Below, in pieces: positions 25,193-29,257 of a DNA stretch of 64,000 bases. Each line of letters begins with the position of its first letter. Position 1 is the stretch's first letter. The notes below the pieces were generated by a model, which was given only the letters and a program-made list of their open reading frames with translations, did not search any database and was not told the origin of the DNA. The translations under genes were made by a program, and so were the position numbers. Source of the DNA: Verrucomicrobiota bacterium (GTDB lineage: Bacteria > Verrucomicrobiota > Verrucomicrobiia > Verrucomicrobiales > V1-33); NCBI GenBank assembly GCA_040386695.1, contig JAZKFB010000017.1, positions 70,146 to 134,145 of the forward strand, read 5' to 3'.

Positions 25193-25799
25193 TCTTCGGG
25201 GTGTTGACGGTTTTCAGGAAATCCTCGGAGCGCTCCACCTCGGCCTGCCAGTTGTTGAGCAGGGTGAGGGTGTCCCGGCGGTAAAACTCCCACCCGGCGG
25301 CCCGCGCTTTGCCGAAAAGCTCCAGATCGGCGAGGAGCTGGGCCTCGGTGGCGCGCAGACGGCGGGCGGCGGCGGTTTCCTTCGGGCTCCAGGCGGTGGT
25401 GGCGCGGCGGTTGAAATGCTTTTGCAGGGCGGCGGCCACCGGTGGCGAAAGCGGGAAGCGGGAGGGTTTGGATTCCTTTCCGTCCGGAGGTTCCGAATCC
25501 GGAAATTCCGGAGCCTCGCACACGCGTGTATGTTCCCCGGGTGTGGGGGTGGGGATAGGGGGTGTGGGGGAAAGGGGCGGGGGAGAGGGTGGCGTTACTT
25601 TTTTGGTAACGCCGGTAACGCTTTCCCCGTCGGGCGTTACTTTTCCGGTAACGCCGGTAACGTTTTTCCGGCGGTCGCGGTAAGCCTGCTGCTTTTCCGC
25701 CGCCGTCATCGGGCGCTTGCCGGTGCCTATGGCCGCCGTGACCGCCTGAGCGATGATCTGCGCCAGTTCGGCGTGGGTGAGGGTGATGGTGTCGCTCAT
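25029..25799 (-). CDS. phage replication initiator
   Basis: MTAAEKQQAYRDRRK, internal iterons, Pro-rich linker; upstream of DnaC-like gene. Confidence 0.65.
   Translation of the reverse strand: MSDTITLTHAELAQIIAQAVTAAIGTGKRPMTAAEKQQAYRDRRKNVTGVTGKVTPDGESVTGVTKKVTPPSPPPLSPTPPIPTPTPGEHTRVCEAPEFPDSEPPDGKESKPSRFPLSPPVAAALQKHFNRRATTAWSPKETAAARRLRATEAQLLADLELFGKARAAGWEFYRRDTLTLLNNWQAEVERSEDFLKTVNTPKNGTDSRTNRPPVSRNAAPLDPNRPSLNATAVNGSAADLAKYGRPDPDENGKSYW
25591..25662. repeat. origin iterons: two 30-bp direct repeats
   Basis: GGCGTTACTTTT(TT/CC)GGTAACGCCGGTAACG at 25591 and 25633; six GTAACG/CGTTAC hexamers. Confidence 0.7.
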
Positions 25800-26803
25800 C
25801 AGAGTGCAAGTCCGGGGGTGATGCTGGTGCGGCGGCGGATAAGTTCCGCGTATTTCGGATTCAGCTCGATGAGCACCGCGCGGCGTCCCAGCTCGATCGC
25901 GACTTCGCCGGTCGTGCCGCTGCCGCCGAATGGATCAAGGACCACATCCCCCGGCCGCGAGCCCGCGAGAATGCACGGCTTGATAAGGTCCGGCGGGTAG
26001 GTGGCGAAATGCGCCTCCTTGTAGGGCGCGGACGGCACAGTCCACACGCTGCGCTTGTTGCGGGAATCGACCCGGAGACAGGTCCCGGCCGCGAAGCTGG
26101 GATTATTCTTCGATCCTCCCGACTCCGCGCCGGTCTTCCCTTTTTTGAAAACAGCCTTCATGCGGCCGTTTGTTTTCGCTCCACCATTCGCCCGCTCGCT
26201 TCCGAGCTGGGCCTCCAGATTTTGAGAAATCCGGGAATGGGTGTTCGGTGAGCACGGTTCCGCGATCGAGCTTTGATCGAAATAATAATTCGGGGATTTC
26301 GTCAGCAGGAAAATATACTCGTGGGCCTTCGCGCACCGGTCGGTGACGCTTTCCGGCATCGGATTCGGTTTTGACCAGATGATGTCCTGCCGCAGCCACC
26401 AGCCGTCCGCCTGCAGGGCGAGGGCGACCCGCCACGGCATTCCCATGAGCTGCTTTGCCGCGAGGCCTCCGGGAATCAGGCTTCCCTTTGTCCGCGCCGT
26501 GAATGTGCGTGATGCCCGCTGGCCGGTTTGCCCCTGGAATCCGCCGGCCGCTCCCGCGTAGGAATCACCCAGATTCATCCAGCATGTGCCATCCGGCCGG
26601 AGAACGCGCCGGACTTCCCGGAAAACGTCCACCATGATTTCAACAAAGGCCTCCGGGGATTCCTCCTGCCCGATCTGTCCGGAGACACCGTAATCCCGGA
26701 GCCCGAAATAAGGCGGACTGGTGACGCAGCATTGCACGGAGGATTCCGGCATGGACCGCATGACTTCGCGGCAGTCGCCGACGTGGAGAGTGAAGGCGCT
26801 CAT
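25799..26803 (-). CDS. N4-cytosine/N6-adenine DNA methyltransferase (beta class)
   Basis: TSPPY first, then HFATYP and DPFGGSGTT; start re-called at ATG overlapping the upstream TGA. Confidence 0.92.
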   Translation of the reverse strand: MSAFTLHVGDCREVMRSMPESSVQCCVTSPPYFGLRDYGVSGQIGQEESPEAFVEIMVDVFREVRRVLRPDGTCWMNLGDSYAGAAGGFQGQTGQRASRTFTARTKGSLIPGGLAAKQLMGMPWRVALALQADGWWLRQDIIWSKPNPMPESVTDRCAKAHEYIFLLTKSPNYYFDQSSIAEPCSPNTHSRISQNLEAQLGSERANGGAKTNGRMKAVFKKGKTGAESGGSKNNPSFAAGTCLRVDSRNKRSVWTVPSAPYKEAHFATYPPDLIKPCILAGSRPGDVVLDPFGGSGTTGEVAIELGRRAVLIELNPKYAELIRRRTSITPGLAL

Positions 26804-28122
26804 ATCAGGACGCGGGTGAGAAGTTGGGTGAAGGCACATTCAGCCTGCCATGGGACGACGCCGTTTCCGGCAATCCGGAGCATATCGGCACGGGCACGCA
26901 CCAGGTCGGGGGCCAGCCCATCAGCCAGGCCGTGAACAGAGGATTCAGTTTCCACCGCATCTCCGGGCGCCAGTCGATCCCCAGCAAACCGCAGAGCATC
27001 ATCTGGTAATGCGGGAGCGAGCCAGGGGCAGGCCTCAAGGATTCCAAGCCAGGCGGGATCAGAGGGACCGGGGGCGAAAACTGGCAGGCCTGCCCCGCCA
27101 GCACCATGCCGTGCGTCTCGCCATGTGACGGCGCAATTTTCGTAGTGCGGTTGCTGTTCTCGCTGGAGGTTGGCGTTGCCCAGTTCGCGGCCTGCGCAGG
27201 AAGCGGAATCCCTCCCGCTCCGAATTGCTGGTTGGGTCCACCCTTCTCCCCGTCGCTCCCCCGTGGAGTGCTCCAGTTCGCCGCCGCTCCGGGCAGCAGC
27301 AACTCCGAGTCCCGGCTCCCGCTCCGCCGGCTCTGTCCCCCGTTTGGAACAAGGACCGTCGGCCAAAAACTGATCGCGGCCACCGTCAGCGGAAGCCCGT
27401 TGTTCGCTCCCGTCTCCTTCTTCGTGCGCGGCGCGCGGGCCGCGAAACTCTCCGGGCTCTCCCTGTCGTTCGCGATCGCCGCGCTCGTTGTCGGCCAGAA
27501 TGAGACCGCCCGCCGCTCCAGGCACTGATCGGTCAGCCGGGCCCGCAATTTTCCGTCTCCACGATTCAATCCCGCATTGGGCCCGCCCGGACAGGTGTTG
27601 GCGGTGGGCCACGCAGAACCAGCGGTCGCGGCGGTGGCCGGCTCCAGTGTCGGACGCGCGGAGAGTTCCCCATTCGCAATTCCACCCCCTTTGAAGCAGG
27701 AGATCGGCGATGTAATCGAATTCCTTTTTGAGCCCGGCGACGTTTTCGAGGAATAAAGCCCAAGCTCCAACTGCGTCCGCGATGCCGAGAATCGCGGGCA
27801 GGAGGTTCCGGTCGTCCTCCCGGCCCTCCCTTTTGCCCGCGACGCTGTGGGGCTGGCACGGGAAGCCCGCAGCGATGCCGTCCACCAGTCCGTGAAATCC
27901 GCTGACCGGGAAGTTCTCCAGACAGCCGCTCCAAATAGGGGCTGGCTCCAGGCCCTTGTCCTCCATACGCGATCTGAGGACGGCGCACGGCGCGGCTTCC
28001 CGCTCACTGTAAGCCACAACCCGGGACCGGACTCCATGCCGGGCAAGGGCCCGCTCGATTCCGATGTCGAGCATTCCGGCTCCGCTGCAAAGCGAGAGGA
28101 TATTAAAGATGGCAGTATCCAC
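26800..28122 (-). CDS. C5 cytosine DNA methyltransferase, catalytic chain (motifs I-VIII, X)
   Basis: LSLCSGAG, AGFPCQPHS, FLENV, HRRDRWF, GNGVVP. Confidence 0.9.
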   Translation of the reverse strand: MDTAIFNILSLCSGAGMLDIGIERALARHGVRSRVVAYSEREAAPCAVLRSRMEDKGLEPAPIWSGCLENFPVSGFHGLVDGIAAGFPCQPHSVAGKREGREDDRNLLPAILGIADAVGAWALFLENVAGLKKEFDYIADLLLQRGWNCEWGTLRASDTGAGHRRDRWFCVAHRQHLSGRAQCGIESWRRKIAGPADRSVPGAAGGLILADNERGDRERQGEPGEFRGPRAAHEEGDGSEQRASADGGRDQFLADGPCSKRGTEPAEREPGLGVAAARSGGELEHSTGERRGEGWTQPAIRSGRDSASCAGRELGNANLQREQQPHYENCAVTWRDARHGAGGAGLPVFAPGPSDPAWLGILEACPWLAPALPDDALRFAGDRLAPGDAVETESSVHGLADGLAPDLVRARADMLRIAGNGVVPWQAECAFTQLLTRVLI

Positions 28123-28124
28123 AT
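26805..28124 (-). CDS. overlapping +1-frame partner of the C5 methyltransferase (TRD-like modules and motif IX)
   Basis: 439 codons open, ATG 2 nt from partner's GTG; five W-[PSA]-T modules; LNPLFTAWLMGWP. Confidence 0.75.
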   Translation of the reverse strand: MWILPSLISSRFAAEPECSTSESSGPLPGMESGPGLWLTVSGKPRRAPSSDRVWRTRAWSQPLFGAAVWRTSRSADFTDWWTASLRASRASPTASRAKGRAGRTTGTSCPRFSASRTQLELGLYSSKTSPGSKRNSITSPISCFKGGGIANGELSARPTLEPATAATAGSAWPTANTCPGGPNAGLNRGDGKLRARLTDQCLERRAVSFWPTTSAAIANDRESPESFAARAPRTKKETGANNGLPLTVAAISFWPTVLVPNGGQSRRSGSRDSELLLPGAAANWSTPRGSDGEKGGPNQQFGAGGIPLPAQAANWATPTSSENSNRTTKIAPSHGETHGMVLAGQACQFSPPVPLIPPGLESLRPAPGSLPHYQMMLCGLLGIDWRPEMRWKLNPLFTAWLMGWPPTWCVPVPICSGLPETASSHGRLNVPSPNFSPAS

Positions 28125-28538
28125 TCAGTCCCTTTCAGTGATGGTTATCCGGCAGCCCGCGAAGTCCGCGTAGGCCTTGCTTGCGCTCAGGCTGATCACG
28201 GCCGCGTCGTTAGGGAACGCCTTCTCGTCACCGAGCGCGTCCATCACCGCCTTCGCGAGATTGTCCACGTCGGGACGGCCGACGGGGTGAGCCGGCGCGC
28301 CTTTGACAAGCGCGCCGCGTTTGGTGAGGTGACCGGCGGGACGGGCGAGGAAGAACTCCAGCCGCATCCGGATGTGCCGGGCGAAGGGCGGATTGCCGGA
28401 CTCGCGCCAGGCGGTGCGGACGGCGGCTTTCCACGCGTCGGCGGACGGTGGATTGTAGGTGTGGCCGCGTTTTGTCATGCGCGGGCGGGGCTGCGGCGCG
28501 GGCGTGCCGGTGACATGGAAATGGGCGGTCTTGTTCAT
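28125..28538 (-). CDS. RusA-family Holliday junction resolvase
   Basis: PQPRPR, RPDVDNLAKAVMDAL, NDAAV; start at MNKTAHF. Confidence 0.88.
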   Translation of the reverse strand: MNKTAHFHVTGTPAPQPRPRMTKRGHTYNPPSADAWKAAVRTAWRESGNPPFARHIRMRLEFFLARPAGHLTKRGALVKGAPAHPVGRPDVDNLAKAVMDALGDEKAFPNDAAVISLSASKAYADFAGCRITITERD

Positions 28539-29257
28539 GCCTCGCCTCCTTCCAGTTTGCGGAATTCGACGACCCAGACCCGCGGATTCAAAGGCCAGGA
28601 GCCGGGGCCGTTGATTGATTCCCAAAGGTCGGCGTATTCATCCTTCGCGGAGATTGGATCAGGGCCGAAGCCGCTGTCCGGATCTCTGTAGGAAGGAGCC
28701 CATCCGGAAGTCGGAATGCACCCTTCGGCAATGGCGTCTTCCTCGCTAATCTCCTTCAGTCGTTCCAGGCGCGCACTGGCTATCTCCAGCGCGATCCGGG
28801 AGGCCCAGCGGGGCAGGAATATTGAAGGCCGCCACGCTTTCCAGTATGCGGTCAGATAATCGGCGTAATCATAGCCATCCTCCCCCTTCTTCCTTTGCCG
28901 CTGCCTGGGAAGCCCTTTTGGATCCGACGATCCGTGAGGGAGCGGGAAATCCATTAATGCTCCGTCGGCCTTATATTGGATCACATGGACATCATCGCCA
29001 TGCTTTCCGGGACCGAGGGAATTATAGGATCTGCTGCTCATGCGATAGCCCCAGGTCTCGCGCACCCAGAGCCGATCTCCCGGCTGCCCGTAAGGACAAG
29101 CCAGCGCCGCGTTCGGATCATCCGGGTGCCAACGGCGGTGAGCCAGCCGCACGTGGCCATCATCGGCCAGCTTGGCGATCCGCCGCGTCTGAGTCTTTCG
29201 CCCGCCCAGAATGGCCCGGATCATTGGCGCGCTGAATAAGATAGGTTTTTCTTTCAT
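28535..29257 (-). CDS. ASCH-like phage protein
   Basis: PILFSAPMIRAILGGRKTQTRR, GDRLWVRETW, WRPSIFLPRWASRI, NPRVWVVEF. Confidence 0.8.
   Translation of the reverse strand: MKEKPILFSAPMIRAILGGRKTQTRRIAKLADDGHVRLAHRRWHPDDPNAALACPYGQPGDRLWVRETWGYRMSSRSYNSLGPGKHGDDVHVIQYKADGALMDFPLPHGSSDPKGLPRQRQRKKGEDGYDYADYLTAYWKAWRPSIFLPRWASRIALEIASARLERLKEISEEDAIAEGCIPTSGWAPSYRDPDSGFGPDPISAKDEYADLWESINGPGSWPLNPRVWVVEFRKLEGGEA

Follow-up and report, generated by a model that had tools for sequence, protein, structure and literature searches.

The 64,000-nucleotide (nt) stretch analysed here, hereafter the window, comes from contig JAZKFB010000017.1 (positions 70,146 to 134,145) of the Verrucomicrobiota bacterium assembly GCA_040386695.1. 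On its minus strand, between 26800 and 28124, the list of open reading frames (ORFs) and their translations gave two reading frames that are each free of stops throughout; the third frame of the same strand has many. The ORF in frame A, alpha (P0001; 26800..28122, 440 residues), has a GTG start at 28122 and a stop at 26802-26800, and comprises C5 cytosine methylase motifs I to VIII, a linker, a C-terminal block and motif X. The ORF in frame B, beta (P0002; 26805..28124, 439 residues), lies at +1 relative to alpha, with an ATG start at 28124 and a stop at 26805-26807, and consists of a leader, five short cassettes, motif IX and a tail. Judged from its sequence, the gene probably encodes a C5 methylase of two chains in two frames, similar in kind to M.EcoHK31I, in a new and widespread form that annotations mostly miss. 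All its features described below lie on the minus strand.

The N-terminal half of alpha is a recognisable methylase. Residues 6-177 match the corresponding half of the C5 cytosine methylase family (PF00145, 1.4e-24, covering only profile positions 1-165 of 324), frame A matches phrog_29583 at 1e-50, and the motifs expected of a C5 methylase large domain are present as LCSGAGM (I), FPCQPHS (IV), ENV (VI) and HRRDRWF (VIII, continuing as HRRDRWFCVA). This catalytic domain spans 27607..28122. It is followed by a linker rich in G, A, R and E (residues 181-344, 27091..27582), which is overprinted on the cassettes, by a C-terminal block, FAPGPSDPAWLGILEACPWLAPALP (residues 349-373, 27004..27078), of the pattern FPPGP..W..P.L.PA, and finally by motif X (GNGVVP) with a C-terminal helix, RADMLRIAGNGVVP.. 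(residues 411-440, 26803..26892). In an alignment of 102 frame A sequences the positions P351, G352, P353, W358, P366, P370 and A371 were at least 90% conserved, and G419 and V422 of motif X were invariant.

Beta begins with a leader (residues 1-171, 27612..28124) rich in S, A, R, T, G and P, after which the five cassettes follow one another. Cassette 1 (27498..27611, 38 residues) opens with WPTANT at residue 172 (27611-27594), its W overlapping the end residues of alpha motif VIII, and is also found in P0005. Cassette 2 (27366..27497, 44 residues, type J in the classification given below) opens with WPTTSA at residue 210 (27497-27480), and cassette 3 (27276..27365, 30 residues, type F) with WPTVLV at residue 254 (27365-27348). 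Cassette 4, WSTPRGSDGEKGGPNQ.. (27183..27275, 31 residues, type B), has its WSTPRG.. motif at residue 284 (27275-27258), and phrog_27243 matches frame B over residues 271-352. Cassette 5, WATPTSSENSNRTT.. (27084..27182, about 33 residues, type G), has WATPTS.. at residue 315 (27182-27165). The W284 and T286 columns and those of W315, T317 and P318 were invariant or nearly so in the alignments. A preliminary description of this DNA had placed five W-[PSA]-T cassettes in a hidden frame at 27090-27615 and had read frame A at their boundaries as VAH, LAD, LAD, LEH and LGN; the array is real, these coordinates enclose it, and the frame A translation reads as described.

Downstream of the cassettes, beta carries motif IX, KLNPLFTAWLMGWPPTW (residues 392-408, 26901..26951; LNPLF..WLMGWP), in which L393 and P395 were invariant in the alignments. 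The division of motifs IX and X between the two frames is evident from phrog_1008, whose positions 262-279 (motif IX) were matched by residues 392-409 of frame B and whose positions 287-320 (motif X) were matched by residues 404-437 of frame A. In the window, motif IX (LMGWP) and motif X (GNGVVP) lie in different frames and not in one predicted polypeptide. A database search with residues 168-412 of frame B returned 326 proteins at E <= 1e-3 among 4022 candidates; among the twelve matches listed, six were frame-B-like over their full length, including the N-terminus, three were in-frame fusions and three were stand-alone cassette domains of about 250 residues. In the ESM Atlas the clusters nearest to beta were viral 'hypothetical protein' clusters without Pfam families.

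The two ORFs share one start region (28120..28136), which contains a Shine-Dalgarno-like site, GAAAGGGA (28136-28129), a frame B stop TGA (28127-28125), the beta ATG (28124) and, 2 nt further on, the alpha GTG (28122). The same arrangement recurred among relatives, the nearest alpha and beta start codons being 2, 4 or 5 nt apart in 87/87 loci in which motif I could be anchored. A conserved internal start for beta was not apparent, an internal ATG with a Shine-Dalgarno-like site before the first cassette being found in only 8 of 141 loci. The first 20 or so nt of the gene are unusually conserved as DNA (28100-28136 in the window, and the start regions of L001-L084), reading xTGAATGTGGCTCTACGTCCC or, in another subgroup, ATGACATGG. 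Dual coding of both N-termini and a signal setting the ratio of the two initiations are both possible reasons for this.

We examined the generality of the arrangement in 160 loci, half of them (80) taken from species genomes across several phyla and the other 80 from IMG/VR, which together with the window gave 161 sources. When pieces from both frames were searched against all of these by tblastn, matches to the methylase N-domain and to the cassette domain were both present in 158 sources; the other three are truncated at the end of a contig. Of these 158 (157 loci plus the window), 155 had the window's frame offset between N-domain and cassettes, with the motif X piece again in frame A, and 148 had both frames open from one end of the gene to the other. 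This conservation of the frame arrangement ruled out sequencing error. The cassette domain was also found in isolated phages, namely Burkholderia phage phi1026b with three relatives and Acidovorax phage Alfacinha3, where the annotation covers frame A only.

Base composition does not account for the openness of the two frames. All 158 analysed genes have a guanine-plus-cytosine (GC) content of 0.58-0.73. Over the cassette segment frame A was stop-free in 147/151 loci, as against 5.3 expected after codon shuffling and 2.1 after synonymous resampling, and the third frame was stop-free in 0/151. Over the N-domain segment frame B was stop-free in 148/151 loci (expected 14.4 and 23.7, respectively) and the third frame in 4 of 151. 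Stops in the beta leader occurred only in L058, L066 and L076, all three of which are actinobacterial. In three related alphaproteobacterial loci from metagenome-assembled genomes (L059, L061 and L065) stops lie just past motif VIII and again in the linker, and the frame A block WPPGP..GNGVVP is still kept, with an ATG ahead of it. The retention of the C-terminus beyond these stops suggests that the alpha tether itself is dispensable, and the three loci are possibly a three-chain version of the enzyme (alpha-N, beta and alpha-C).

Which frame is selected, and where, was read from mismatches sorted by codon phase in an all-against-all blastn comparison of the 148 genes with both frames open, leaving out 10 genes, pairs at least 99% identical and columns in which the sequences were in different phase. 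At 75-85% identity the most variable position in the N region was the third position of frame A (mismatch rate 0.315 vs 0.172 and 0.108). Across the cassettes it was the third position of frame B (0.353 vs 0.145 and 0.150), and in the C region after motif IX again the third position of frame A (0.299 vs 0.158 and 0.100). Frame B as a chance open frame was ruled out by this phase analysis together with the shuffles, and the frame that had been called hidden is the one under purifying selection across the cassettes.

A finer wobble map, made from 134 genes with both landmarks in bins of 30 nt, showed constraint on frame A through motif VIII, then a sharp change to frame B within 30 nt and constraint on frame B throughout the cassettes. 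Frame A was constrained again from 90 to 30 nt before WLMGW, where the short FPPGP..W..P.L.PA block lies, then frame B between -30 and +30 nt around WLMGW (RRLNPLFVEWLMGWP), and frame A from +30 to +150 nt past it, over motif X, which amounts to four switches between the frames. Across the cassettes frame A is kept open without constraint, and the beta leader is likewise open without a wobble signature of its own. The window's own data are sparser: a GC-phase plot placed a switch at residue 180, and a phase map built from its 30 blastn partners had only four bins with enough sites, all four of which agreed with the family map. Cassette 4 bore the frame B wobble signature in these partners.

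Genuine dual coding is possible over some 20-25 codons, where beta overlaps alpha motifs VII-VIII. The beta leader at residues 146-167 (about 27625-27690), upstream of the first switch, reads ..KGGGIANGELSARP.., resembling ..PTSGMMRGGRLSPLP.. in the second chain of Mycobacterium phage Arissanae and ..PTAGGMRNGSLY.. in P0014 and P0048. In the fine map, the -60 bin shows a weaker phase contrast.

The cassettes themselves are repeated, modular units. The pattern W.T[PASTVCM] occurred 618 times in the frame B variable regions of the 148 genes, compared with 52.7 times in residue-shuffled copies, and the core over 612 cassette starts was W-P(50%)-T-P(85%)-x-A(52%)-x-D(45%)-G..GG. The description of the cassettes as mostly ending in L...A just before the next W holds across the family, with L at -7 in 53% and A at -3 in 43% of these starts. 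The number of cassettes per gene was 0 in two genes, 1 in one, 2 in one, 3 in 36, 4 in 56, 5 in 33, 6 in 18 and 7 in one, so that 144/148 genes have three to seven. Typing by a regular expression followed by graph communities sorted 615 cassettes from the 148 genes into at least 12 types, of which type B has 92 members, a procedure that misses variants such as W-P-M-P in L085 and makes some type differences artefacts. The resulting type strings were highly diverse, the commonest being found three times, and that of the window is x-J-F-B-G.

Comparison of the strings with N-domain identity indicated how fast the array changes. All 14 pairs with 98-100% N-domain identity shared their type string, which was common to only 3/48 pairs at 90-98% and to 2/222 pairs at 80-90%. 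Among close relatives the alignments showed gain, loss and replacement of whole units, clean at the W-x-T-P boundaries: L090 is without one 35-residue cassette that L083 and L085 have, L003 has one cassette more than L007, and L155 has a different cassette in place of the type B cassette of L103. The preliminary description had proposed that comparison across homologs would be informative, invariance of the cassettes speaking against modularity; they are not invariant, and number, type and order all vary. Its proposal that cassettes are gained or lost by recombination while frame A stays open is supported both by these whole-unit events and by the open frame A in 147/151 loci.

Structure prediction added to this picture. 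AlphaFold2 gave alpha alone a predicted local distance difference test (pLDDT) score mostly above 90 over residues 1-195, including the catalytic domain, and of 63-95 over the C-terminal blocks; residues 197-343 (147 residues) scored 31-41 and had no secondary structure. The characterisation of frame A as a passive linker was accordingly right for the part that overlies the cassettes, which is open, unconstrained and predicted to be disordered, and left out that the same frame also carries the catalytic domain and motif X. The AlphaFold2 model of beta shows each cassette unit as a loop plus a short helix.

We also predicted the complex of alpha with beta residues 165-439 in three runs with alignments of our own. 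The score was 0.86, versus 0.00 for the best control; this mark was reached by 116/157 solved complexes and by 2/215 mismatched pairs, counts that hold only roughly here owing to those alignments. The runs shared at least 32% of their contacts. In the predicted interface, residues 155-165, 346-384 and 403-425 of alpha face beta motif IX, which forms the core, and the start of cassette 5, which contacts the motif VIII region of alpha. The C-terminal block and motif X of alpha are thus placed against beta, and the interface blocks are the blocks that carry the selection signal. A similar packing of motif IX against the large domain is seen in solved C5 methylases of a single chain. On the strength of the model we infer that alpha and beta probably associate.

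The closest precedent, going by its published description, is M.EcoHK31I, a natural heterodimer whose beta subunit is wholly encoded in another frame of the alpha gene; as described in the available parts of the two reports, alpha has motifs I-VIII, motif X and what is predicted to be the target-recognition domain (TRD), beta having motif IX (PMC2836561, PMC3404938). The window shares the alternative frame within the alpha gene and the assignment of motifs I-VIII and X to alpha and of motif IX to beta. It differs from what is described there in two respects: the predicted TRD of M.EcoHK31I is in alpha, whereas the variable region of alpha in the window is unconstrained and predicted to be disordered and the candidate TRD is in beta; and the M.EcoHK31I beta is a small embedded ORF, whereas the two ORFs of the window are co-extensive, with twin starts and selection that takes five turns between the frames.

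Other split enzymes resemble the window in part. M.AquI is described as split within its variable region (the available text of PMC3404938), and in M.AquI as in the split actinophage pairs (Arissanae gp80/gp79 and Streptomyces phage Vash gp32/gp33) the division falls just after motif VIII, as in the window. In Mycobacterium phage Arissanae the second chain is at +1, overlaps the first and contains units of the form L-P-T-P along with an ..EWMMG..-like motif IX, like the window; however, the Arissanae alpha ends after motif VIII and motif X is in the second chain, whereas the alpha of the window is full-length, with motif X back in frame A. In Paenibacillus phage Jacopo, where gp56 and gp57 each bear the annotation 'DNA cytosine methyltransferase', there is an embedded +1 coding sequence (CDS) with three W-x-T-P units and LNPDWVECLMGFPIGW (LMGFP), which matches the window beta family (hhalign probability 97.5%, E 5.5e-12). 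As in the window, the middle of the Jacopo alpha looks like junk and its end holds motif X, but the Jacopo beta begins 202 nt into alpha and stops short of the C-terminal block of alpha, unlike the co-extensive beta of the window. The available part of the phage's published account lists two cytosine methyltransferase genes and does not comment there on an overlap (PMC6070908). Streptococcus phage MM1 (L163 1309-2466) has an annotated 'C5 methyltransferase beta subunit' of 141 residues at +1 inside the alpha gene; in this case motifs IX and X are already in frame within alpha itself, and W-x-T-P units are missing from the embedded ORF. Our literature searches found no description of a co-extensive two-frame form or of the cassettes, and PMC8788219 does not mention methyltransferases.

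Four things were observed: selection that alternates between the frames, two frames kept open, paired start codons and turnover of the cassettes. With the comparisons above, they lead us to read the locus as a prophage C5 DNA methyltransferase made of two polypeptides from two co-extensive frames, in which the cassettes are swappable modules at the target-recognition position. We give this reading roughly two chances in three. Alpha would supply the catalytic large domain, with motifs I-VIII at its N-terminus and the short conserved block and motif X at its C-terminus, the two ends being connected by a disordered linker of about 165 residues that is free in sequence. Beta would start 2 nt upstream of alpha on the same ribosome-binding site, pass through its unconstrained leader and then encode the small domain, namely the W-x-T-P cassette array followed by motif IX, and would dock onto alpha, motif IX and the C-terminal blocks of alpha making the contact. 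Recombination at the recurring W-x-T-P boundaries would add, remove and replace cassettes in multiples of three bases, and because the changes come in multiples of three, both frames would stay open. The modular array foreseen in the preliminary description thus survives, together with its passive linker; what it had missed is that the cassettes probably belong to a separate beta polypeptide.

Several results weigh against this reading. The Pfam search of frame B returned no family, and in P0029, P0042 and P0058 a methylase N-domain is fused in frame to cassettes. L012, L078 and L101 have another frame offset, and 10 of the 158 sources are without one full frame. An ATG lies within 40 codons of the first cassette in 74/141 loci, which makes internal initiation of beta possible. 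The beta domain alone was poorly folded by AlphaFold2 (pLDDT 65.5, predicted template modelling score 0.35), its pLDDT within the predicted complex was only 43-47, and Foldseek found no match to the beta model in the PDB at E <= 0.001. The complex score may in part express likeness to solved single-chain C5 methylases and is to that extent not independent evidence. A 170-residue leader and a 165-residue linker, both unconstrained, are costly and odd. The family is known here from genes alone, through comparison and prediction. The assignment of the cassettes as TRDs, finally, comes from their position only, and hhalign of the beta-domain profile against the ORF of the multispecific Bacillus phage enzyme M.SPbeta gave a probability of 0.1%, that is, no similarity.

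The position itself is clear. In C5 methylases the variable region lies between motifs VIII and IX, and in gene order the cassettes lie between these same motifs, the beta array preceding motif IX; they would thus occupy the target-recognition position. Since the beta domain has no profile similarity to M.SPbeta, TRD identity rests on this position. A search of PDB profiles with the beta profile gave a single match, to the Pax5 paired domain, which was not significant (E 0.39); the N-terminal part of that domain shares ..TPR.S....GG.NQ.GG...G.PLP with cassette 4 (27183-27275, type B). TRDs of C5 methylases typically contain a conserved T-L dipeptide. By eye, the variable region of the M.SPbeta ORF has two P..T[LV].T sites that resemble W-P-T-P-x-A, and the canonical methylase in the available part of PMC11954522 has a comparable PSPTITT about 25 residues before its motif IX. 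We regard this resemblance as a lead and not as a test.

What the modules do is the less certain part. From their location the cassettes may well determine the methylated sequences; that each cassette adds a specificity of its own is the weakest step, and if it does the enzyme would be an evolvable multispecific anti-restriction methylase. The parallel is with the Bacillus phage C5 methyltransferases SPR, phi3T, H2 and SPbeta, in which, according to the available part of one account, tandem TRDs between motifs VIII and IX give several recognition sequences (PMC8936443). The window resembles them in having tandem units between VIII and IX (five here, three to seven in homologs), in phage context and in unit scale, and units are exchangeable in its family too, by natural whole-unit turnover as seen in the comparisons. 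It is unlike them in that the Bacillus phage enzymes, as described there, are single polypeptides in one frame, with one specificity per unit established.

In its most far-reaching form our proposal would be that the C5 methyltransferases of phages and prophages include a large class, annotated only in small part, that consists of two co-extensive overprinted genes with one ribosome-binding site, starts 2-5 nt apart and alternating constraint, whose mini target-recognition modules, shuffled by recombination at W-x-T-P joints, each add a motif, making a fast-evolving multispecific anti-restriction device. We advance this tentatively, at odds somewhat short of even. If true, a cassette could change only in ways that keep both products in frame, and the overlap would tie the two subunits together as a single heritable unit.

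The strongest alternative keeps the two chains and takes the cassettes as structural repeats that together make up one small DNA-binding domain, its specificity being single or relaxed; turnover would then tune affinity or be nearly neutral. The W-P-T-P-x-A-x-D-G..GG core common to every unit would fit this, as would the 92 members of type B in 148 genes, the contact of only the last cassette with alpha in the predicted complex, the lack of similarity to the TRDs of M.SPbeta and the repeat-like fold of the units. However, there are at least 12 types, their order and content differ among enzymes with 90-98% identical catalytic domains, and whole-unit replacement such as that of L155 vs L103 looks more like diversifying exchange of specificity modules than like drift of a scaffold. 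We consider it less likely than not.

Much less probable is a single polypeptide made by programmed ribosomal frameshifting from A to B and back to A. Put together, the selected segments would have the layout of a canonical C5 methylase (motifs I-VIII, then the variable region, then IX and X), and phrog_1008 does have motifs IX and X in one frame. Yet the selection map demands four switches and not two, frameshifting gives no reason for frame B to be open in the N-domain (148/151) or frame A in the cassettes (147/151), and it leaves the twin start codons unexplained. At the first switch in the window there is no stop codon or other pause site, slippery sequences not having been searched for. 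The four switches, together with selection for openness of the segments that are 'off', argue for two full-length translation products and not for frameshifting.

That frame A alone is the gene, with frame B an open shadow frame of GC-rich DNA, would accord with the GC content of all loci, with the RefSeq annotation of phi1026b, which has frame A only, and with the lack of a frame B family in Pfam. We hold it to be very improbable: the most variable position across the cassettes is the third of frame B and not of frame A, frame B matches outscore those of frame A there, the third frame is open in 0/151 loci, frame A is predicted to be disordered in this segment, and the same beta domain is an annotated CDS in the Paenibacillus phage. 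An assembly error, or a pseudogene with two compensating indels, could be imagined for a window from a metagenome-type assembly whose sampled words all occur in one run, possibly its own source, but the same arrangement in 155/158 sources from many phyla and isolated phages, and in a second copy in the same genome, leaves it a negligible chance. That run is a DNA run; no RNA run was among those listed as containing sampled words, and the shares of the other runs were at most 0.13.

In bacteria and phages, long overlaps between genes on one strand are seldom found and are usually contested. The present case covers about 1.3 kb read in two frames, with comparative support from 148 sources that span many phyla and isolated phages. 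Its pattern of constraint is unusual, selection falling on one frame only where the other is free. Of two such frames, gene callers retain one and either discard the other or label it a hypothetical protein, and for this reason the putative DNA-recognition half of the enzyme is missing in annotation as well as in Pfam. Should specificity be set by the cassettes, their rapid whole-unit turnover would show how phages retune methylation to escape host restriction, and the family would be a natural toolkit of small exchangeable recognition modules.

The genomic setting of the two-frame gene is a phage-type replication module. RusA lies upstream at 28125-28625 and an IstB/DnaC-like ATPase is close by. 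Directly downstream is an N6_N4 DNA methylase (25799-26803, minus strand; PF01555, 4.4e-51), whose longest ORF call begins at 26839, within the ends of alpha and beta. Its probable start is the in-frame ATG at 26803, which overlaps the alpha stop as ATGA, an overlap that suggests translational coupling.

Extensions of beta were seen in some phages. In phi1026b (L161 1768-3892) and in L085, L087, L088, L090 and L091 frame B continues stop-free for about 927 nt into an annotated ParB-like gene, and beta may be fused to a ParB-like domain in these Burkholderia phages. P0013, a database protein of 709 residues, carries PF17762.

The second two-frame C5 methylase of the same genome is on contig C24 (L172 1041-2220), with neighbours like those in the window. 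Its alpha' has 373 residues and a different N-terminal type, and its +1 ORF, of 357 residues, starts 106 nt downstream and contains four W-x-T-[PA] cassettes together with LNPLFSLWLMGFPSGW.

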